A stretch of DNA of 64,000 nt from Planctomycetota bacterium (GCA_028823395.1 JAPKBO010000001.1:4920-68919); one strand, 5' to 3'. Shown: positions 10,689-20,779, numbered from the stretch's first letter. Program-made: numbers and translations. The notes: a model not told the origin generated them from the letters alone.

Positions 10689-12205
10689 GCATGACAGGGC
10701 ACGATCTGCACCGAGGAGGCCTGCTTACTTCCGCCCCCACCTGAATAGATCATCTCCAGCGCGCCACGGCCGCCGCAAGTAGAGCAAGCCTTGAGGTAGG
10801 GGTGATCGCGCAGCTCGTAGTCTCCGGCGAATTCCACGTAGAAGGCCTTAATCCAATTGGCGCGCTTGCTGAGGGTGAAGGCGTCCCAGAAAACCTGGAA
10901 CTCGTCCTCTTGGGCGGCCTGAGCCTGTGCACGGCGGGCATTGCGCTGGTTCTTCAGGAAGCGCTGGATTTTGTCCTCTAGTGCCGCCCGCTCCTTGTCC
11001 TTGTCGGTCATGGCATCGCGCTGGGCGGAGGTATCCTCGGTGCCCGCAAGGGCCTTGTCTTCCCCCAGCATCCAGGTCCCCTCACCATAGGTGGCGTTGT
11101 TGTAGCGCAGCATGTGGCGCGAGACCCAGTGGGCCACGATCTGATCTTCACTCGCCTCAGAGTTGTACTGTTCCTGGACGTCCGCCAGCACAGCCTCTCG
11201 AATAGCCTCGCCAAGCCCCTCTTCCGCAAAAGCCACGGCACCGACGTAGTTGAGACTGCCGGCCGCCTGCCGGGTCAGTCGGGAGAGCCAGTAACCCCAG
11301 CGCCTGCGCACAAAATCGGTCACTTCCTCATCGCGCGCGAGCATGATCTGATTTTCCTTCGCCTTGACCTCAAGCACTAGAGGGCTGGCCGGGAACACGA
11401 GGGCGAAACCCGCCAGCCGTTCCAGCGCCGTCTCGTACTGTCCCTTCTTGCGTAGCACGTCGACGCTCCGCAGATAGTCAATCTGGGCCTGCTGCGCGGC
11501 CTTGACCTGAGCTAAGGCTACGGAGTTGGCCAGCTCGGGATGCTCCAAGTTCTCATCCAACGCCACCGCTGCCTGGAAGTGTTCCAGGGCATGCTGGAAA
11601 TCGAGAAACTGCTCACAGGTGCGTGCCATATTGATCTGGCCCTGGAGGTCCGTCTCCACCAACTCAGCCGAGTGGCGCGCATACAGCTCCTCGCGGCTGT
11701 AGATATCTAGAGCCGGAGCCTGGCCCCCCTTGGAAATACTCTGCACTCGGCGCTTGGGCACGAGCTGCAGGTTGCCATCCACCTGAACGACGAAGTCCGT
11801 GCCCTCCCGCGAGAGGATGACGCCCACGACCTCGTGGCCGTCCACCAAGATCAGGCGCTCCACATCCACCATCAATTCGTCCGTGGCCACGTCCACGTAG
11901 CCCAGCTCTTCGCGCAACTCCTGCTGCTGGCTGGGATCCAGTGCGGTCCAGACAACGCTCGCCACTCCACCGTGGGACAAAAGCGTAAAGCGGAAGCCGT
12001 CCGGGTCGTGATCTAGAATGTGGCCCCACCGGATCTGCCCACTGCGCAGCTTCAACATCAGCGCAGGTTGCAGCTCCAGTTCGGGCGCCTCCTGCGAGGA
12101 CGGCTCAGGCGTAAGGCCGGGGTCCTGTTCAGGAGACTGGAGCGCCGAGGCACTGGCACAGAGGAAAAGGGAAAGGCTCAGGAACTTGAGGGTGTCGATC
12201 ATCAC
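10646..12205 (-). CDS. secreted TPR-like protein with C-terminal DnaJ-type zinc finger (CxxCxGxG ... CxxCxG)
   Basis: Signal peptide MMIDTLKFLSLSLFLCASASA. Helical repeat region. C-terminus CSTCGGRGALE...CHACRGVAV. GTG (12205) or ATG (12202) start, overlapping the upstream pseudopilin stop. Confidence 0.7.
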   Translation of the reverse strand: MMIDTLKFLSLSLFLCASASALQSPEQDPGLTPEPSSQEAPELELQPALMLKLRSGQIRWGHILDHDPDGFRFTLLSHGGVASVVWTALDPSQQQELREELGYVDVATDELMVDVERLILVDGHEVVGVILSREGTDFVVQVDGNLQLVPKRRVQSISKGGQAPALDIYSREELYARHSAELVETDLQGQINMARTCEQFLDFQHALEHFQAAVALDENLEHPELANSVALAQVKAAQQAQIDYLRSVDVLRKKGQYETALERLAGFALVFPASPLVLEVKAKENQIMLARDEEVTDFVRRRWGYWLSRLTRQAAGSLNYVGAVAFAEEGLGEAIREAVLADVQEQYNSEASEDQIVAHWVSRHMLRYNNATYGEGTWMLGEDKALAGTEDTSAQRDAMTDKDKERAALEDKIQRFLKNQRNARRAQAQAAQEDEFQVFWDAFTLSKRANWIKAFYVEFAGDYELRDHPYLKACSTCGGRGALEMIYSGGGGSKQASSVQIVPCHACRGVAVTRRVYYR

Positions 12206-12726
12206 GGTCGGTCTGGGGTAGAAGACGTAGCGGATTGGTCCTCCTCACCCGGAGCCATCTCCTGGGGCGGGGGGAATGAACGGGCTCGGATGAAGCGCCG
12301 GCGCAGTCGCTCTCCAAAGGGTACTTCACGTAGCAACAGGGTGGTGAACTTGCGCGCGCGTTGCACTCCGGCGGCCTCCCAGGAGACGTTCACGTCCACA
12401 GCGAACTCGTCCGGGTCGTCGGGGTTGACCCGCGCCAGGGCCGAGTAGATCACGCCGGTGGCGCCGGGCACGGGGCGATCGACGATCACACGCGGGTCCC
12501 CCACGCTGCCGTCTTCCTCTAAAGGAAAGAGTGACTCCTCTAGGTCTGCCACCACCGCCTCGATGGCCGTGGCCGCAGCCGTGCGCAAGGCAGCGGTACG
12601 GGTCAGGGCGGCGCCAAAGGTGAACAGGCCCAGGAGCGAGGTCATGGCCATGACCAGCAATCCCATCGCGAGGACGACCTCCAGGATGGTGAAGCCCGCC
12701 TGCGTCCGGGTGCGTGAAGGGCTCAT
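12202..12726 (-). CDS. minor pseudopilin, GspI-like (prepilin-type N-terminal methylation domain)
   Basis: Class III signal RTQAG|FTILEVVLAMGLLVMAM with Glu at +5. ATGA overlap with the upstream gene. Confidence 0.75.
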   Translation of the reverse strand: MSPSRTRTQAGFTILEVVLAMGLLVMAMTSLLGLFTFGAALTRTAALRTAAATAIEAVVADLEESLFPLEEDGSVGDPRVIVDRPVPGATGVIYSALARVNPDDPDEFAVDVNVSWEAAGVQRARKFTTLLLREVPFGERLRRRFIRARSFPPPQEMAPGEEDQSATSSTPDRP

Positions 12727-13937
12727 CGGCCACTCCCTAGCCGGGTCGAGGACGCAGGACGCCCCAGGTTCCAGTCGTCACTGTGCATAGCCACGGGCAC
12801 CTCAACGACGACGGTCTCACCGAAGTGTACGCGTGCGCCAATATCGTGGGGCATCGCGGCGGATCCACGGGCGGCACGTTTCACACTCACGCGGTCGCCG
12901 CGCAAGCCCTGTACCTCCATCCACTCCCCGTCGATGAGAATGTGGCGTCCTTTCCGATAGGGCAGGGCGGAACCGTCGCTCACCTCGAATGAGGCCGTTT
13001 GTTTCTCTAGGGGTTCGAGGAGGGTCGGACGCCTCCGAAGATCCGCAGGGCGCTCGAACTCAAGCTCCACGCGCACTCGGCGCGGAAGCAGGGGGCTGCC
13101 CGACACCGCCGGCATCCCCGCGCCGGGCTTGTTCCAGGGGTGCGCCTGCCAGTCCGGACAGAGGGGATCGTCGCTGGATCGTCCCCAGGCATCCCAGGAA
13201 GCGCTGGCGTGTTCCAACCCGGCGCCCAGTTCCCACCCATCCCAAATAATGCTCGTTTGTGTGGCGAACTGCAGGCCCAACCAAAGCAGCCCTCCGGACA
13301 CTTCCTCCAGCCCCCCCGCCTTGGGACGGCCCGAGGAGGAGAAGAAGTCGGACCTAAAGAAGGTGCCGACAGAGCCCGGGGCCAAAAGGGCCTCGCCACG
13401 CATGAGTAGACCCTGCCCACGGGAAAGGGCATCGGTCCCCACGGGCACCACGGCCCAGGCCACCTCCATGAGCCCACTCTGTATGGCCGGCGTGGGACGC
13501 TGGTCCTCGGGAATGAGAGTCTCTACATCGACGCCTAAACTCGCGGCTTGAGCCACCAGCGCCGGGTCCACACCACGCGCCGACAAACGAACGACGTCCG
13601 CCATGGATACCGATCGCACAAGGCGCAAACGCGGCCAGACGCGGTCCACGCGCCCGTCCTGGTCCACATCGAAATTGACCCAATCCACGAGGAAGTCCCC
13701 TTGGGATCCACTGTGTAGAGAACGCAGATCTTCAGCGATGAGCTCCGCAGTCGCAGCCCCGCGCTCAACGATGAGACGTTGATCCTCACCCCGGGTCCAC
13801 ATGTCCAAGGTCGTGTCGAGCAGACGGAACAGAGCCACCATCAAGATCGCGGCCAGACCAGCCGCCACCATCAGCTCCACCATCGTGAAGCCTCGACGTG
13901 CGATGGAACTCTTCGGATTCAGCCGGGTGCCTCTCAT
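12723..13937 (-). CDS. minor pseudopilin, GspJ-like, with a C-terminal repeat module shared with the giant pseudopilin
   Basis: ARRG|FTMVELMVAAGLAAILMVALF with Glu at +5. Start trimmed to MRGTRL (13937), which gives an ATGA overlap with the giant gene's stop. Module ILIDGEWMEVQGLRGDRVSVKRAARGSAAMPHDIGARV lies at 12828-12947. Confidence 0.7.
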   Translation of the reverse strand: MRGTRLNPKSSIARRGFTMVELMVAAGLAAILMVALFRLLDTTLDMWTRGEDQRLIVERGAATAELIAEDLRSLHSGSQGDFLVDWVNFDVDQDGRVDRVWPRLRLVRSVSMADVVRLSARGVDPALVAQAASLGVDVETLIPEDQRPTPAIQSGLMEVAWAVVPVGTDALSRGQGLLMRGEALLAPGSVGTFFRSDFFSSSGRPKAGGLEEVSGGLLWLGLQFATQTSIIWDGWELGAGLEHASASWDAWGRSSDDPLCPDWQAHPWNKPGAGMPAVSGSPLLPRRVRVELEFERPADLRRRPTLLEPLEKQTASFEVSDGSALPYRKGRHILIDGEWMEVQGLRGDRVSVKRAARGSAAMPHDIGARVHFGETVVVEVPVAMHSDDWNLGRPASSTRLGSGR

Positions 13938-16900
13938 TGATCCACACTCCTCAGCACCTGACCCGGTGCCTGATAGCCCACACCCAGACGCTTCAGACGC
14001 GGCGTCTCTTTCCAACCGTGTGAGAGCCCGGCCGTGGGGTCGAAAGCACCCGGGTCGTAGCGCACGAAAACGCGCCAGTCGATGCGCTGGGATTGCACGC
14101 CCACCGGCAGGGCCGCGTCACCGTCTCGCCCCTGGAACAGAAGCTGCAAGCCGCTCTCCTCTTCGGGGTCCGCGTCCCAGGGAACGGATGGGTCCGTGCG
14201 TTGCAAGACACCGATGTGGCACTGGCCATGGGTGGCCGGCTCAGAATCCCAGAAGGATTCCGACCACCAAGCGCCGGGCTGCTCCAACTCAAAACCGAAG
14301 TACGACATTTCGGGAGCGTCGGCCTGCTCAGCCCAACGATCCCAGTAGCGGAACGGGAACTGGATCACGGTGGAGCGCAATGCGTGGGCGCTCGGCACGG
14401 TGCCGTAGCGACCCCTAAACAGGCCCGCCCCGCCACCGTCATCGCTACTCGATCTAGAGTCAGGATCATCGGCGTCGTAGCCGGAGCGCGGCATCTCCAG
14501 CGAACCCCGGCGCTGCCGTGTGAAGTGGATCAACTCGTCACCGATCAGGACCGTACCGGAGGTGCCGAAACCGGTGGCGCTCTCAATGGGCAAGGTGGAG
14601 TCGGAGGGGCCGATCCCTCCCGTCAGCGAACTCACAGCCCAACCTTCCATCAAAGTCACCAATTCGGTCGGTTGATGGGGCTGGGGATCTGTACCCAAGA
14701 GGCCGCGACCATCGGGGGCGACGACAATGTCGCCGGTTTCCACGTCGCGCTCGGTGTAAGCCAGGATCTCGTTGCCGATCCGCAAGAGCCCCCCATCGCT
14801 GTCCAATGCTCCGAGCACCCCCTGCGCGCCACCCCAGCGGCCGCCAGGAATCACGAACCCCGTCGGGGCCACCCGCATCGTCCCACTGCTCTCATCCATG
14901 GCCTCGGCCAGGATCATCTGCGCGCCCGCACTGTGCATGGCGGGGCTAGTGCCAGGCAAGCCCATCAGGAATTGCTGGGAGCCAAATGCCACCTCGTCCA
15001 CAACGGCCGAGGGCACTTCGCCTCCTTGGGCATCAAAAGTTGAGCCCACGCTGACCGACGAAACGATACGCGGCCTCTCTCCAGAAGGGAACTTACTGAT
15101 ACGTGGCAGGAGGCGGGAGTCCGTTGTCGTCGTGCCAAGCGTGACCATGGCAACCGACTCCGGGCAAGGCTTGTCGAAAGCCACATAGATGTGCTGCACG
15201 TTGATCTCCGAGTGATTGGCCTCGAAGCTCTCCGGGGAACTGGGGAGGGCCACCTGGTCTCCGCCCGGATCGAAGTCCCAACCGTAGCCGGTGTACTCGG
15301 CCGCAGGAAGGTGAGCACGCTCAACGACCATGGGCCATCCCAGGTGGTCCGGATTGGCGCCCGATACAAAGACTGCATCACCCGCACCGGGGCGCCCTCC
15401 ATCAACGCCCCTATCAAACAAGTGGAAGACCGGCAGAACCTGAGTTCCGGCGGGATGGTCATGTGTGTGGGTTCCCAAAACACCGCGGAATTGGAAGACC
15501 GAGGAGACCGCTCGGGATAGATAGAACTCATCCAGCTCGGGTTCTCCACGCAGGGGATCCCAGTCCGACCCTACGGACGGAACCGGGCCTGAAGAAACCA
15601 CCGGAGGACCTGTAGCAGGTGCGTAAGTGCCGCCGCCACCGCCACCGCCGCCACCACCACCGCCGCCGCCCGGTCCACCACCGCCATTGCCATCAACGGT
15701 GCCACGCAAGTCGTTCATGACTCCGCCGGAGGTCAGGGTGACGTAGACGGCAAGCAGGGCCTGGTTGCGGTCGCGCACGAGCTGGCCCTGGGCCGTGGCC
15801 AAGGTGTCGTAGCGCACCCACTCGGTGAACTCCGCTGCGTCCGGCCGCGTGAGTTGGACGAACTCCGAGTTGTCGAGGGCGGGCAGATACGTGAGGTCAT
15901 CGGCACCTGGACAGGGAAGGGAAATAGGTACGCAATAGCAGCCCATGTCCAGCATGCCCTGCACCAGGTCACCCTCTGCGTTGGTGGTGCCCTCCCAGTC
16001 CACGACGTACACGCGTACGCCACCGGCAAACCCGGTGGGGTCCTGGTTCCCATAGTTGGGCAGTTCATTGGCCACGACATCCCCCCGGGCCGTGACATCG
16101 AGGACCGTCCCGGTATAGCCCGAGTAGCGGATGATCTCCAACCCGCCCAAGGGCGCGTTGGGAGGGATGCCCGAGGTACCCGTCTCGTCAAAGGCCCAGC
16201 CTTGCTGAACGAGGGCGGCATAGCCCCCGGTGGGATTGAAGGCTGTCATCACATCGGACTCCCCTGGATCTCCGGTGGGGTCGTCCGCCAGAGCCAGTAT
16301 CAGGCCACTCATGTTGGTGGCCTCGTACCCGTCGCCAAAGTCGAAGAAGCCGCCCAGGATGGGATCGGGCCCCGTCCCCGTGGAAGCATCCACGCCGATA
16401 ACACGCGCCACCCTGAACGGGCCGATGGCCTCAGGTAGTTGCGCGTTGCCTGCGGGCAGATTGGAGGCCAGGGGCGCAGAGTAGCCGTAGAGGGACACGC
16501 TCGCGCCGAGCGGGTGATCGGTGGTGATGGCTCCCAAATTGGCGGGCAGGCCTTCCACGCTCCAGCGCGTACGGGCCAGGCGTCCACCGTGCCCCGCGTT
16601 GGGGCCCACTTCTACGTGGGTGGCTTCAAGCCCTCCGGAGGAGAGCACGTACTCCACCAGCTCGTTCCCTACTCGCACCACCCCCTGGGTGGGGAATCCT
16701 TCGGTGTCATCCAGAGCAAGGAACCCCATACCTTGGCCGGCCCCACCGCTCAGCTTCGACATTCCCGGGCGTCGAACGCCCGACGCTGAGCCATTGACCA
16801 TCAGGCCCAGTTGATCCGGGCGTGTACCAAGCACCTCCAAGGAGACGTGGCTCCAGGTGTCCACCGGGAAGCCCGGACCATCTCCTTCCGCTAGCGCAAA

Positions 16901-19066
16901 ACGGGCCTCGGCCGCCTCCCGAAAACCGGGCGTGTCCACGTGATCCCCAAAACCATCGAGCACGCGCAACACCAGATCCTCGCCCTCCATTAGGAGGCTG
17001 ACCCGGTCTGACTCGCGGCTGGTCATGCCTACGTCCAAGAGGTATCCCTCCCCCAGCATGGCAGGCTTGACCCACAGCTCGAAGAGGACCGGATTCATCA
17101 AGCCACCCGAGCGCGCGTCCGCCCAAGCCACGCGCTTGTCGTCGATGGCGAAACCCAGAGTCTCGTCCGGCAGATAGCGACCCTCCAAGTCGCGAGTCTC
17201 GCGGTCAAAGTGCAGGGTACGGCCACGGTAGCGCCCCCCCTCTTCGAGGCGGGAGGGCCACAGCTGCGCCCAGGCTTCGTCTTCGCGCGAGGCGAACACG
17301 TGCTCGCCGGGTCCCGGATCCCCACTGTCAGAGTCGTCCGGAGTGAGGCCAGGCAGGTACACGCGTCCATCGCGTGTACCCATGTGCGGCCAGACCCGCG
17401 AGGGTGGCACCGTGCCGCCGTCCCACTGGGACGTCGCTTCGGGGCCCGTGGCCCACCAGGTGGCGCGCCGGGTCAGGCGCATGGATTCATCGAAGGCCTC
17501 CTGGGTGCCCCACAGAGTGAAGAGGTCGCGCTGGGGCACGACCCACTCGACGCGCTCACGGAGAGCATGGGTGCGTTCCAATCCACTCGGCGCATTGACC
17601 GAAGCGCGCAGTTGCATCGAGTACACGTCCCGCGACGTGAAGCACAAGGGCATGGTGGAGAATGCCAGCGACCCGTCGTTGGCGTTCAAACTATTCACGT
17701 AGAGCGCCAGCGCATCGACCGAAGAGATGGCGGCGCCAGAAGTGCCGGCGAATCGATCGGGAGACACGGGCGAACCCGAGGGCAACTCTTCAATTCCCGC
17801 CGCAGGCAAAACGATGCGCCGCATCCAGTCCTCGAGCCCCTCGAAGGGCCGACTCTCAACCGTCAACTCCGCAAGGAGCTTGGCCTCACTCGTGGTGATG
17901 CGCGAGTTCTGCCCGCGCAGCTGTAGGTTTTCAAACAGCGCGCGCAACACGAGCCCAGGTGCCGTGTTGACGTTCACCGGCCGGCGAGCCAGCACGCGCA
18001 CCTCCGTCTCCCAAGCCAGATAGTCCCGATCCAACACCTCATTGCAGAGGATGCGTCCGTTGGTGCTGCGCGACTGCACGTAGCGCAACTCGCCCCCCTC
18101 CTTGTCACCAATCCAAATCGTCGCGCCCTCGTTGAGATAGCGTGCATCATCCACGCCAATAGAGAGGGTCAATCCACCCTCTATGGGAGTGATCAGGCGT
18201 ACGGACCTTTGCCAGGCACTACCCGCGCAGACTCCAGCATGCACGCTGCCCACCTCCCCCAGAGCGTTATAGGCGCCATCCCCGACGCCCCCCACTATGG
18301 CGAAGGCGTCAGCCTCCCGTAGTTGCTCGATGGTGTCGAATTCGCGCAGGCGACCACCAGGACCCGAGATGCGCCAGATCACGGGGGCGAACGAACGCTG
18401 ATCCATGACGTGCGCCCCCACCGGGTGGTCGGAGGGCGGACGTGGGCCGTCGGTCACCCAGTCGCCGTCATCATTCTTGTGCGTATTCACACCCCGAACT
18501 TGAACCTGCATCTCGCCCTCTTCATCGAGAACGTAGTGAACGATCTCACCCTGGATAACGAGGAAACCCTCGCGCTCCCCGAAAGTATCGGCGTCATTGA
18601 GGGCCAGTGAGTTTGCGTCTCCCGCAACCACATCCGACGTGCGGGTGATCAGGCCCATGGCGCTGGCCAGCAGCTGGGGCGGCGCGCTGTTCAGATCGAT
18701 CAATCCCGCTACGTCGCGCACGTCCAGATCCCACATCGCTCCCGTCGCGTCGTTGGCCTTCAGGAAACCTTCGGCAAAAACATTGTCCACGCTCAACTCC
18801 TCCAGGGAGTCGGCGTACGGCGAAAGGTCGGGCAGCCCCGCATGGGAGGCCCCCAACTGACCGCGAGCGTGGCGGGCAGCGGAGTCCAGCAACAGGCGCG
18901 CCTCGGCACGGTCCGCCAGGTGCGCGCTGGCCCTATCCGCGTTGCGGGCGGCCAAGAGGAACGGAGCGCACAACACGAGCAGCGATAGGACGACCAGCAG
19001 CACCGCCATCAAGGCGAAGCCTTCGCGCCCGCGCGCAGCCAAAGGGATGGACTTATGGGCTCTCAT
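13934..19066 (-). CDS. giant (1710 aa) GspK-like minor pseudopilin with LamG-like and multiple repeat modules
   Basis: Leader ARGREG|FALMAVLLVVLSLLVL has no Glu at +5, as in GspK. Two GspK-type helix-hairpin-helix motifs (GLIDLNSAPPQLLASAMGL; PVNVNTAPGLVLRALFENL). ATGA overlaps at both ends (19063-19066 and 13934-13937). The tracked ORF start at 19429 is rejected as an extension running into the upstream gene. Confidence 0.7.
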   Translation of the reverse strand: MRAHKSIPLAARGREGFALMAVLLVVLSLLVLCAPFLLAARNADRASAHLADRAEARLLLDSAARHARGQLGASHAGLPDLSPYADSLEELSVDNVFAEGFLKANDATGAMWDLDVRDVAGLIDLNSAPPQLLASAMGLITRTSDVVAGDANSLALNDADTFGEREGFLVIQGEIVHYVLDEEGEMQVQVRGVNTHKNDDGDWVTDGPRPPSDHPVGAHVMDQRSFAPVIWRISGPGGRLREFDTIEQLREADAFAIVGGVGDGAYNALGEVGSVHAGVCAGSAWQRSVRLITPIEGGLTLSIGVDDARYLNEGATIWIGDKEGGELRYVQSRSTNGRILCNEVLDRDYLAWETEVRVLARRPVNVNTAPGLVLRALFENLQLRGQNSRITTSEAKLLAELTVESRPFEGLEDWMRRIVLPAAGIEELPSGSPVSPDRFAGTSGAAISSVDALALYVNSLNANDGSLAFSTMPLCFTSRDVYSMQLRASVNAPSGLERTHALRERVEWVVPQRDLFTLWGTQEAFDESMRLTRRATWWATGPEATSQWDGGTVPPSRVWPHMGTRDGRVYLPGLTPDDSDSGDPGPGEHVFASREDEAWAQLWPSRLEEGGRYRGRTLHFDRETRDLEGRYLPDETLGFAIDDKRVAWADARSGGLMNPVLFELWVKPAMLGEGYLLDVGMTSRESDRVSLLMEGEDLVLRVLDGFGDHVDTPGFREAAEARFALAEGDGPGFPVDTWSHVSLEVLGTRPDQLGLMVNGSASGVRRPGMSKLSGGAGQGMGFLALDDTEGFPTQGVVRVGNELVEYVLSSGGLEATHVEVGPNAGHGGRLARTRWSVEGLPANLGAITTDHPLGASVSLYGYSAPLASNLPAGNAQLPEAIGPFRVARVIGVDASTGTGPDPILGGFFDFGDGYEATNMSGLILALADDPTGDPGESDVMTAFNPTGGYAALVQQGWAFDETGTSGIPPNAPLGGLEIIRYSGYTGTVLDVTARGDVVANELPNYGNQDPTGFAGGVRVYVVDWEGTTNAEGDLVQGMLDMGCYCVPISLPCPGADDLTYLPALDNSEFVQLTRPDAAEFTEWVRYDTLATAQGQLVRDRNQALLAVYVTLTSGGVMNDLRGTVDGNGGGGPGGGGGGGGGGGGGGTYAPATGPPVVSSGPVPSVGSDWDPLRGEPELDEFYLSRAVSSVFQFRGVLGTHTHDHPAGTQVLPVFHLFDRGVDGGRPGAGDAVFVSGANPDHLGWPMVVERAHLPAAEYTGYGWDFDPGGDQVALPSSPESFEANHSEINVQHIYVAFDKPCPESVAMVTLGTTTTDSRLLPRISKFPSGERPRIVSSVSVGSTFDAQGGEVPSAVVDEVAFGSQQFLMGLPGTSPAMHSAGAQMILAEAMDESSGTMRVAPTGFVIPGGRWGGAQGVLGALDSDGGLLRIGNEILAYTERDVETGDIVVAPDGRGLLGTDPQPHQPTELVTLMEGWAVSSLTGGIGPSDSTLPIESATGFGTSGTVLIGDELIHFTRQRRGSLEMPRSGYDADDPDSRSSSDDGGGAGLFRGRYGTVPSAHALRSTVIQFPFRYWDRWAEQADAPEMSYFGFELEQPGAWWSESFWDSEPATHGQCHIGVLQRTDPSVPWDADPEEESGLQLLFQGRDGDAALPVGVQSQRIDWRVFVRYDPGAFDPTAGLSHGWKETPRLKRLGVGYQAPGQVLRSVDQ
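15629..15685 (-). repeat. imperfect (GCC/ACC)n trinucleotide tract encoding GGGGPG14 inside the giant pseudopilin
   Basis: Codon-by-codon reading: 14 consecutive Gly codons, then Pro, then 4 more Gly (protein ...DGNGGGGPGGGGGGGGGGGGGGTYAP...). Confidence 0.95.
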
Positions 19067-20112
19067 TCGACCGTCCCGTACACGTTGACTCGAATGGTCT
19101 CCACACCGCCCTCGCCAAAGTCGAGGCCCAGCTCTACCGGCCGCAGATGAACCGTTGGATCCAATCCACCTCCGGCCATGAACTCCACGGAGGCGGGAGT
19201 TTGGGGAGTAAAATCCACCCCCAGGGGCAAAACGCCTCGCTCGCTGCCCACCACGACCGCCAGGATCAGCCTGTCGAGAACTCCCGAGGGAAGGGTGGTT
19301 CCACCGCCCACGATCAAGGGCGCCTCCACGTCCCAGACCGGCACGTCGGAGGCCGTTGAGGCCAGCGGAACCCCATTGACCAGAAGTCGCAGAGTGCGTT
19401 TGTCGTAGACGCATCGCACATGATTCCATTGGTCCGGCCGTAGAGCCGTGGCACTTGTCTGAACACCGACCCTTGCGCCACGCCGAGGCTGGCCCAGTGC
19501 GTCCACCTCACGCCGGTACAGGGTGGCCGAGAGGCCTCCACCGGAAGTGGTCTGCAACAGGAAGGAGTCGCCGATTTCGATCAGCTTGGCCCCCACCATG
19601 CGCTCGGGCTTGTAGCTGATCTCCAGACTGAACCCCTCGGTCAAGTCGAATGCGGGGTCGTGTTGCACGGGGAACTCGGCCCGCGCGCCGGCGGGCGCAC
19701 CATCGAATGAGAGTCCACGCCCCATGAACCCGTCGTCGTCCAACAGTGAGCCACTCCCCAAGAATACACCGTCGATTCCATCCGAACCGCTAAGGGTCTC
19801 GTCCTCGAAATGCCAAGTACCCACGACACGCATGCCCACGGTCAGGATTTCGCCTGTCTCGTGATTGAGGATCACGCGAGAAGGAGCCCCCAGAGCCACG
19901 GCTGTGTTGTGCGCGGTACGCAACAGGCTCGTGACCTGACCCAGAGCGGCGCGCCGACCGGGATCCAGGGTCGCGAAAGCCCCCAATCCCATGCCCATCA
20001 TCACAGCGATCAGCCCCATCACAAGCATCAGCTCGATCAGGGTCATGCCCGCGTTGAAGCGGACCGGACGCGTGGGGTTAGTCCCGCTCAATCTCAAAGT
20101 TGGCGATGTCAT
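19063..20112 (-). CDS. modular pseudopilin (GspH position) carrying a LamG/concanavalin-A-like domain
   Basis: VRFNAG|MTLIELMLVMGLIAVMM with Glu at +5. C-terminal WNHVRCVYDKRTLRLLVNGVPLAS is typical of Laminin_G_3-type jelly rolls. ATG at 20112 overlaps gspG by 35 nt (in-frame TTG alternatives exist). ATGA overlap with the giant gene. Confidence 0.7.
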   Translation of the reverse strand: MTSPTLRLSGTNPTRPVRFNAGMTLIELMLVMGLIAVMMGMGLGAFATLDPGRRAALGQVTSLLRTAHNTAVALGAPSRVILNHETGEILTVGMRVVGTWHFEDETLSGSDGIDGVFLGSGSLLDDDGFMGRGLSFDGAPAGARAEFPVQHDPAFDLTEGFSLEISYKPERMVGAKLIEIGDSFLLQTTSGGGLSATLYRREVDALGQPRRGARVGVQTSATALRPDQWNHVRCVYDKRTLRLLVNGVPLASTASDVPVWDVEAPLIVGGGTTLPSGVLDRLILAVVVGSERGVLPLGVDFTPQTPASVEFMAGGGLDPTVHLRPVELGLDFGEGGVETIRVNVYGTVE

Positions 20113-20779
20113 CTGCAGTACCGAAAAATCCGTCGGGTCCGGCGGAGATGATCTGGAAGCTGGATTTGCGATGAGGGTCTCCCGTCTTGCGGGAGACGCC
20201 TCCCTTGACCGGGCCCTCAATATCCAGACCCACTTCGTCATAGGTGAGGTAGTGAATCTCCTTCTCGTAGTCCCGGCGGTGGATGTACGCGAGGGGATTT
20301 CCCCAAACGTCGATCAACTCGAAGGCATCGGGGCTACTGAAGCGCGTCAGGCTGGTCTTCGTGCTATCTCCATCGGTGTTGCCGAGAGCATCCTCACCTA
20401 TCTCCGCGGCCTGCCAAGGACGGCCCTGGCGCCACAGGCTGATGACGAGCATTTCCACACCCATGTTGATGCGGTTGGGCTTGGGGTCGAGGCTGGCCGG
20501 GAAGGTCGAGGGCGGGTAGCGCTGGAACTCGTTGTTGTACTCCTCCACCAGCCCACCGATGGTCTGAATCAGGGCCTTGGTATTGCCCACCTCCACGCTG
20601 ATCTGGGCAGCGCGCACGGAGCGCACCAGGAAGGTCACCAGGATGGACAGAATCATGAGCACCGCCAGGAGCTCAATCAGGGTGAAGCCACCTTGGGTTC
20701 CGTCCCGCTCAGGAGCGGTCGTGGAAGACGCCCGAGAGGTCCGGAGGAGTAGCGGGCGAAGGGAGTTGGAGATTCGCAT
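20078..20779 (-). CDS. gspG: type II secretion major pseudopilin GspG-like, with an internal insertion
   Basis: TQGG|FTLIELLAVLMILSILVTFLVRSV...KALIQTIGGLVEEYNNEFQRYPPS and C-terminal FQIISAGPDGFFGTADDIANF match the GspG pattern. Confidence 0.8.
   Translation of the reverse strand: MRISNSLRPLLLRTSRASSTTAPERDGTQGGFTLIELLAVLMILSILVTFLVRSVRAAQISVEVGNTKALIQTIGGLVEEYNNEFQRYPPSTFPASLDPKPNRINMGVEMLVISLWRQGRPWQAAEIGEDALGNTDGDSTKTSLTRFSSPDAFELIDVWGNPLAYIHRRDYEKEIHYLTYDEVGLDIEGPVKGGVSRKTGDPHRKSSFQIISAGPDGFFGTADDIANFEIERD

Follow-up and report, generated by a model that had tools for sequence, protein, structure and literature searches.

A 64,000-nucleotide stretch of a Planctomycetota genome (GCA_028823395.1 JAPKBO010000001.1:4920-68919; hereafter the window) encodes two adjacent putative minor pseudopilins, a giant GspK-like protein (K; 13934..19066, 1710 aa) and a GspJ-like protein (J; 12723..13937, 404 aa), which share a recurrent module. 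This module is very probably a single domain of ~60–70 residues, predicted to fold into a six-stranded closed beta-barrel, with support for six copies in K and one in J. Profile and model comparisons indicate that the domain is homologous to the barrel of solved phage tail-tip hub proteins, namely that of phage Chi and domain VI of JBD30 gp53. It has neither a Pfam nor an NCBIfam model. Coordinates are positions within the window, and all genes discussed lie on the minus strand. Residues of K are numbered along the open reading frame (ORF) 13934-19429 rather than from Met122, which we take as the true start (window 19066) because the 229 database relatives of K are all ~1700 aa long. The length of J is counted from Met27 of ORF 12723-14015, and its module copy is given in ORF residues.

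Copies of the module in K and J

The recurrence of the module had been proposed in an earlier note from translations inspected by eye. The minus-strand translations of the five coordinate ranges given there read exactly as quoted, and its other peptides lie at K residues 438, 1096, 1203 and 1312. Copies were compared by hhalign between orthologue sub-alignments (148 K and 30 J orthologues), with eight further segments of K as controls. Four K copies (m1, m2, m5 and m6) and the J copy recognize one another with probabilities of 78–98% (P 2e-5 to 5e-15; 46–73 columns), versus at most 3% for the control segments.

A general hidden Markov model (HMM) of the family was built from 338 copies found in 79 tandem-array proteins and includes no K or J orthologue. 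In hhalign comparisons this family profile reaches 99.3% with the J copy, 96.7% with m1, 96.1% with m2, 96.5% with m5 and 97.6% with m6, followed by 72% with m3, 38% with a weak copy and 35% with m4; the controls stay at or below 0.6%. Within K, the HMM matches residues 270-315, 904-928, 1315-1332, 1545-1593, 1607-1637 and 1672-1689 (1.7–8.4 bits), corresponding to m1, m2, the second half of m4, m5 and both halves of m6. Shuffling K 1000 times gives scores with a 99th percentile of 0.9 bits and a maximum of 3.3; every one of these matches lies above that percentile. The recurrence is real and well beyond chance. Searched against the 35,227 six-frame ORFs of the genome, the HMM ranks J first (E 1.6e-13) and K second (E 2.8e-10), with a single marginal match after them (contig C36:18395-21424, plus strand, E 0.044, residues 151-202 of 1010 aa). 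The same HMM finds all 148 K orthologues and 28 of the 30 J orthologues. A J-specific profile retrieves J alone from this genome, the K copies requiring the general one.

These comparisons bear directly on whether the similarity might be no more than coincidence or composition, singled out visually from a long protein rich in Gly, Arg and Val. Leave-one-out HMMs made from the copies chosen by eye performed unevenly on the second half of the motif: three copies did poorly, their scores being equalled in 109-345 of 1000 shuffles. That test is biased by the selection of copies by eye, and it was replaced by the orthologue profiles and the independent HMM. The gap between the copies and the controls, the genome-wide detection of K and J by a profile that had seen neither, and the agreement of the predicted folds leave this explanation hardly any probability, and we regard chance similarity as excluded by the orthologue profiles and the independent HMM. 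A blastp self-comparison of K yielded nothing off the diagonal and is useless as a repeat test.

The copies with the full motif are as follows. In m1 (18395..18622, K residues 270-345) the hhalign probability is 97% against the J copy and 98% against m6; m2 (16475..16732, residues 900-985) reaches 97% against m1 and 98% against m6. The m5 copy, which contains no insertion (14642..14827, residues 1535-1596), scores 96% against both the J copy and m1, and m6 (14354..14608, residues 1608-1692) scores 98% against both m1 and m2. J ends at its C-terminus in one clean copy (12795..13013, ORF residues 335-407), the minimal uninterrupted form of the module, which the general HMM detects with 50.5 bits.

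The two remaining K copies are heavily interrupted. The m3 copy (15920..16333, residues 1033-1170), a predicted barrel with insertions, retains the motif only in the hairpin of strands 3 and 4 and matches m1 with 84% probability, its match to the m1 and general profiles extending over 18–19 columns. The m4 copy (15428..15919, residues 1171-1334) is split by a 92-aa insertion; its second half matches m5 and m6 with 77–88% probability and its first half matches m1 with 42%. The assignment of six copies to K is supported by sequence for the four with the full motif, and by partial profile matches together with the predicted fold for m3 and m4.

The earlier note had also listed a weaker copy around K residue 438, and this part of its count did not hold up as the other seven copies did. 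The segment (17984..18178, residues 418-482) lacks the RG..GT..H motif and matches the general profile with 38% probability (P 3e-4) and each of the other copies with at most 10%. It may be a divergent member; as a copy it is unproven, and we leave it out of the six. Another candidate, K 1492-1513 ('GTSPAMHSAGAQM'), was matched by a single-sequence HMM and rejected, its orthologue profile (control c7) giving at most 1.2%.

Predicted fold and relatives in phage tails

AlphaFold2, run on the alignment of the J copy (A1), produced an all-beta model with a mean predicted local distance difference test (pLDDT) score of 89. Of the two forms that had been suggested for the unit, a small beta-hairpin or a barrel, the model favors the barrel. 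The signature can be laid out along the predicted strands: 'h-x-V-x-D-x-x-x-F-P..G' covers strand 1 and the following loop, 'h-x-I-(G/D)-x-E-h-h-x-(Y/V)' strands 2 and 3, 'G-x-x-h-x-V' strand 4, 'RG-x-x-GT-x-A-x-x-H' the subsequent turn and 'G-A-x-V' the last strand.

With the uninterrupted J copy as reference, m1, m2, m4 and m6 all carry their insertions after strand 4, around the RG..GT turn. This agrees with the suggestion that the two halves of the module tolerate large insertions in a loop, and across orthologues the inserted lengths range from 0 to 163 aa (50–163 in m4 and 0–35 in m6), with m5 constant. In m1, ~13–20 aa are inserted after the RG turn; m2 carries two insertions of ~12 aa each on either side of a degenerate RG turn, and m6 a 23-aa acidic insertion after strand 4. 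The 92-aa insert of m4 (residues 1220-1311, window 15497-15772) contains a G4-P-G14 tract; AlphaFold2 models it as a pair of short helices and a Gly-rich part that is disordered (pLDDT ~30). Across 148 orthologues, the longest Gly run in this insert varies from 1 to 15 residues.

A likeness to phage virion proteins, mentioned in the earlier note, was borne out by both sequence profiles and predicted structure. Searched against PDB sequences, the A1 profile matches the tail-tip protein of phage Chi at two places (8vjh_A, 534-575 and 938-984, E 5e-9) and the baseplate hub gp53 of JBD30 (8rk3_o, 491-560, E 4.5e-5). The VIA structural search with the J model returns the same regions at the top, 8vjh_A 496-585 with Z 8.8 and 8rk3_o 487-566 with Z 8.6, over 73 aligned residues, along with 8jov_1 (Z 8.1); the next unrelated rows score at most 6.6. 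The top rows include a VP1 capsid chain with Z 8.8 and, with Z 8.1, a phage GP4 portal-tail chain. More phage tail and tailspike domains come below a gap in the scores, and then the N-terminal barrels of F1/V1-ATPase and HerA (Z ~5). Foldseek found nothing in the PDB at E ≤0.001, and phage tail-fibre models of the BFVD match at template modelling (TM) scores of 0.75–0.83 with 20–30% identity.

Phage protein families point in the same direction. The m5 copy matches PHROG 1101, annotated as 'tail protein', at profile positions 586-634 (E 2.6e-4), and the J copy matches the same region. Module arrays of other proteins match PHROG tail and tail-fibre families (phrog_1101, 7578, 9851, 8469, 11439, 38058 and 4406) with E down to 2e-43. 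Each of these families describes an entire protein, with the barrel as only one segment, and none of them defines the domain itself.

For the interrupted copies, an AlphaFold2 model of K 1030-1340, spanning m3 and m4, has a pLDDT of 71 and a predicted TM score of 0.74, and its strands flank the disordered Gly-rich insert. The part of the model containing m3 (model residues 4-141) aligns with 8jov_1 (Z 5.5), 8vjh_A 495-577 (Z 4.9) and 8rk3_o 486-557 (Z 4.8), and the part containing m4 (model residues 142-305) with barrels of 8gtc_M (Z 4.4), HerA (Z 3.6) and lambda gpJ (Z 3.2). These Z scores (3.2–5.5) are low, as is usual when sub-domains of a larger model are compared; the top chains are the same as for the J copy.

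In the JBD30 hub, domain VI has been described as a small six-stranded beta-barrel that projects from domain V, which is fibronectin-like, makes contact with domain VII and stabilizes the baseplate (PMC11445458). The module resembles this barrel (8RK3 chain o, ~487-566) and those of Chi (8VJH, ~496-585 and 938-984) in an E...V / RG..T.P..H / G..V signature visible in the alignments, and in being an accessory domain grafted onto a larger scaffold. It differs in its host, a putative minor pseudopilin of a type IV filament rather than a virion protein, and in the architecture of K, with six copies of which most carry loop insertions. The contact made by the JBD30 barrel is intramolecular, and its role may not carry over to K and J. 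Full-text literature searches for the PDB codes 8JOV and 8VJH found no paper describing the domain.

Distribution of the domain family

A search of 1.84 billion representative proteins with the A1 profile returned 3,996 proteins at E ≤0.001, of which 653 at E ≤1e-10. The domain thus occurs in ~4,000 protein clusters (50% identity), and in giant proteins it forms tandem arrays of up to 33 copies, spaced mostly by 60–80 aa. Besides phage fibres ending in an S74 chaperone domain, its carriers include giant proteins of planctomycete type, which accords with the likeness to cell-surface proteins also mentioned in the earlier note. Co-occurring domains are VWA, TIG, PA14, Kelch and Invasin_D3, as well as the pilin N-termini Tad, PilX_N and N_methyl.

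Pfam searches at E up to 10 gave nothing relevant on any of the eight K and J module segments, and in nine module-rich proteins neither Pfam nor NCBIfam recognized the domain, for which neither collection has a model. Sub-threshold or summed partial matches found elsewhere concern PF25274 (MJ0548_C, the connectase C-terminal domain; positions 48-89), HAS-barrel (PF09378), NfeD_C, SH3_15, DUF6406 and PTSIIA_gutA. PF25274 and HAS-barrel, like the N-terminal barrels of F1/V1-ATPase and HerA, share a small closed beta-barrel with the module. In tandem arrays, positions 48-89 of PF25274 match the first half of the module, with summed scores of 29–60 bits and no single significant stretch. The two Pfam families differ from the module in matching none of the K or J copies and in not covering the RG..GT..H signature.

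A parallel to K and J is found in TadE/G-type (TadG-like) pseudopilins (P0153, P0162, P0189 and P0196), where the same barrel is grafted onto type IV filament subunits. These belong to the Tad pilin class and carry 5–12 clean tandem copies with a spacing of 60–70 aa, some together with VWA and TIG domains. Counting K and J, subunits of type IV filaments have thus acquired the domain more than once. All four pass the PF25274 sequence cut-off by summed partial matches, with no single significant stretch, and automatic annotation could therefore mislabel them.

Host pseudopilins, their locus and a proposed role

K is kept in 39 of 41 genomes of the order, and the records of its relatives are uncultured Planctomycetota metagenome-assembled genomes (MAGs). 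Its N-terminus, 'REG|FALMAVLLVV', forms a pilin-type hydrophobic helix with Ala at +5 and no Glu5. A pilin-type helix without Glu5 is typical of GspK. K is encoded beside I-, J- and H-like pseudopilins, the J-like one bearing N_methyl. Its match to PF03934 (T2SSK; 17.9 bits, cut-off 24.2) and that to NF037980 (19 bits, cut-off 130) are both below threshold and confined to residues 479-512; PF03934 is precomputed on two K orthologues, P0048 and P0120.

J has an N_methyl motif (E 2e-5; 24.3 bits versus a cut-off of 21.2) and scores 14.7 bits against the GspJ model TIGR01711, whose cut-off is 64.85. Its orthologues are 404 aa long, and one relative, P0289, is named 'PulJ/GspJ family protein' by NCBI. 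These weak matches, combined with gene context, point tentatively to a GspJ-like identity. A search for related loci with the J protein found only four close Planctomycetota MAGs.

Outside the repeat, directly before m2, K contains a putative LamG/ConA-like segment (16760..17122, residues ~770-890). PF13385 is precomputed for it on the K orthologues P0020, P0040, P0083 and P0096, and its consensus motif is visible; the segment of the window's own K has no Pfam match. Laminin_G_3 is found on the neighbouring H-like pseudopilin as well. K also shows two GspK-type 'xN(L/V)N(S/T)A' helix-hairpin-helix motifs (18560-18700, residues ~244-260; 17930-17990, residues ~480-500). They flank m1 and the weak copy, suggesting that both were inserted inside the GspK alpha-domain region.

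Such architectures recall the modular pilins surveyed by Raynaud et al. (2021), among them GspK with its inserted alpha-domain and PilB (vWA) and PilC (ConA-like lectin) of S. sanguinis (PMC8179133). For modular pilins in general, an exposed position at the tip of the filament is considered likely (PMC8179133). J follows the same plan, with N_methyl followed by a C-terminal barrel, and so does K, with a pilin-type helix, six barrels and the LamG-like segment; a LamG/ConA-type module is present on the H-like pilin of the same operon. K is unlike the known modular pilins in its 1710 aa, ~5x the usual size, and in its combination of six barrels, a LamG-like segment and other inserts. Having no Pfam or NCBIfam model, this module type would probably escape a survey based on InterPro signatures such as that of PMC8179133.

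The genes of the locus form an H-K-J-I run. The H-like pseudopilin with the LamG module (19063-20241; Laminin_G_3 E 6e-8, GspH E 8e-5) precedes K, and the I-like one (12202-12726; XpsI E 5e-9) follows J. Further 5′ are another pseudopilin, a 949-aa tetratricopeptide repeat (TPR) protein, a PilM-like protein and a forkhead-associated (FHA) protein, and the gene after I encodes a TPR and zinc-finger protein. Overlaps of 4 bases are present between the K stop and the J start (13934-13937), between J and I (12723-12726) and between I and the next gene (12202-12205), which suggests translational coupling of these four genes. The H-, K-, J- and I-like proteins (12202-20241) give weak N-terminal NCBIfam matches to Verru_Chthon cassette proteins D, A, C and B, respectively. 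The gene order resembles the Verru_Chthon cassette of the Planctomycetes–Verrucomicrobia–Chlamydiae (PVC) superphylum, the match being confined to the pilin helices.

GspK caps the tip of the I-J-K pseudopilus. Since modular pilins are also considered likely to be tip-exposed, the barrels of K and J would be located at the tip. We hypothesize that they serve as stable, insertion-tolerant building blocks of an enlarged exposed tip, a functional reading whose chances we judge to be evenly balanced. The barrels and the LamG-like segment would have been grafted onto a GspK scaffold, where the barrels would give the exposed distal end of the I-J-K complex greater size and rigidity, and the variable loops and the LamG-like segment might make contacts with ligands or surfaces. 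The J barrel would be positioned next to the domains grafted onto K, to which it may dock in the way that domain VI of JBD30 docks on its neighbouring domain. Domain identity and this functional reading taken together form the best explanation overall, which we consider somewhat favored.

A narrower function for the J copy, along the lines of the shared interaction unit suggested in the earlier note, would be to pair with one particular K copy. The pair would form an interface dedicated to J-K docking, by which the giant subunit is kept on the tip complex. Within the genome the domain is clearly present only in these two adjacent genes, which appear to be translationally coupled, the copies of both proteins are conserved across the order, and domain VI of JBD30 works by touching a neighbouring domain. 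However, six copies in K exceed the needs of one interface, and most other proteins with the domain have tandem arrays and no partner protein, which makes a dedicated interface improbable.

Alternatively, the barrels themselves may bind ligands such as glycans and provide multivalent adhesion at the tip, in the manner of the accessory domains of phage tail fibres and tailspikes that bind host polysaccharides. The domain is indeed frequent in tail fibres and tailspikes and occurs in giant surface proteins with PA14, TIG, Invasin_D3, VWA and Kelch domains; its arrays, with as many as 33 copies, are reminiscent of adhesin repeats, and K has its LamG-like segment. Yet no member has a known ligand, the conserved Gly, Arg, His and hydrophobic residues are typical of a fold core and tight turns, and the JBD30 barrel has been described as making an intramolecular stabilizing contact rather than binding a receptor. 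We therefore consider ligand binding by the barrels rather unlikely, though a little less so than a dedicated J-K interface.

Several points weigh against the favored account of tip building blocks. The Z scores of 8–9 in the VIA search are moderate if taken alone, and the barrels of F1/V1-ATPase and HerA are also similar (Z ~5). The description of K as GspK-like is tentative, as it draws on sub-threshold model matches and operon context. The operon ORFs scanned yielded only products of FHA, PilM-like, TPR and pilin type, none being recognized as an ATPase, platform protein, secretin or prepilin peptidase; the search covered these ORFs and not the remainder of the genome. Finally, the conserved residues of the domain (Gly turns and buried hydrophobics) look structural and are uninformative about a ligand.

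A broader proposal is that this is an unnamed, very widespread extracellular barrel family common to phage tail tips and fibres and to type IV filament tips (GspK/J-like ones in Planctomycetota, TadG-like ones elsewhere), in which the barrels act as contact units, modules have been exchanged between phages and filaments, and a new class of tip adhesins has arisen. We put it forward as speculation that is unlikely to hold in full. If the barrels are contact units, pseudopilus tips would share the receptor-engaging architecture of phage tail tips.

K and J represent the modular-pilin theme built from an unnamed, widespread barrel of phage-tail type. They widen the modular-pilin concept by a new type of module and by an example with extreme copy number. 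With a family model, phage tail proteins, giant surface proteins and pseudopilins in their thousands would be better annotated, and the loop after strand 4 is a natural insertion site that may be useful for engineering or display. For the organisms themselves, a predicted fold and an identity are now available for ~500 residues of an otherwise unannotated 1710-aa protein conserved across an order of uncultured Planctomycetota, and what the pseudopilus tip does in these bacteria becomes testable.

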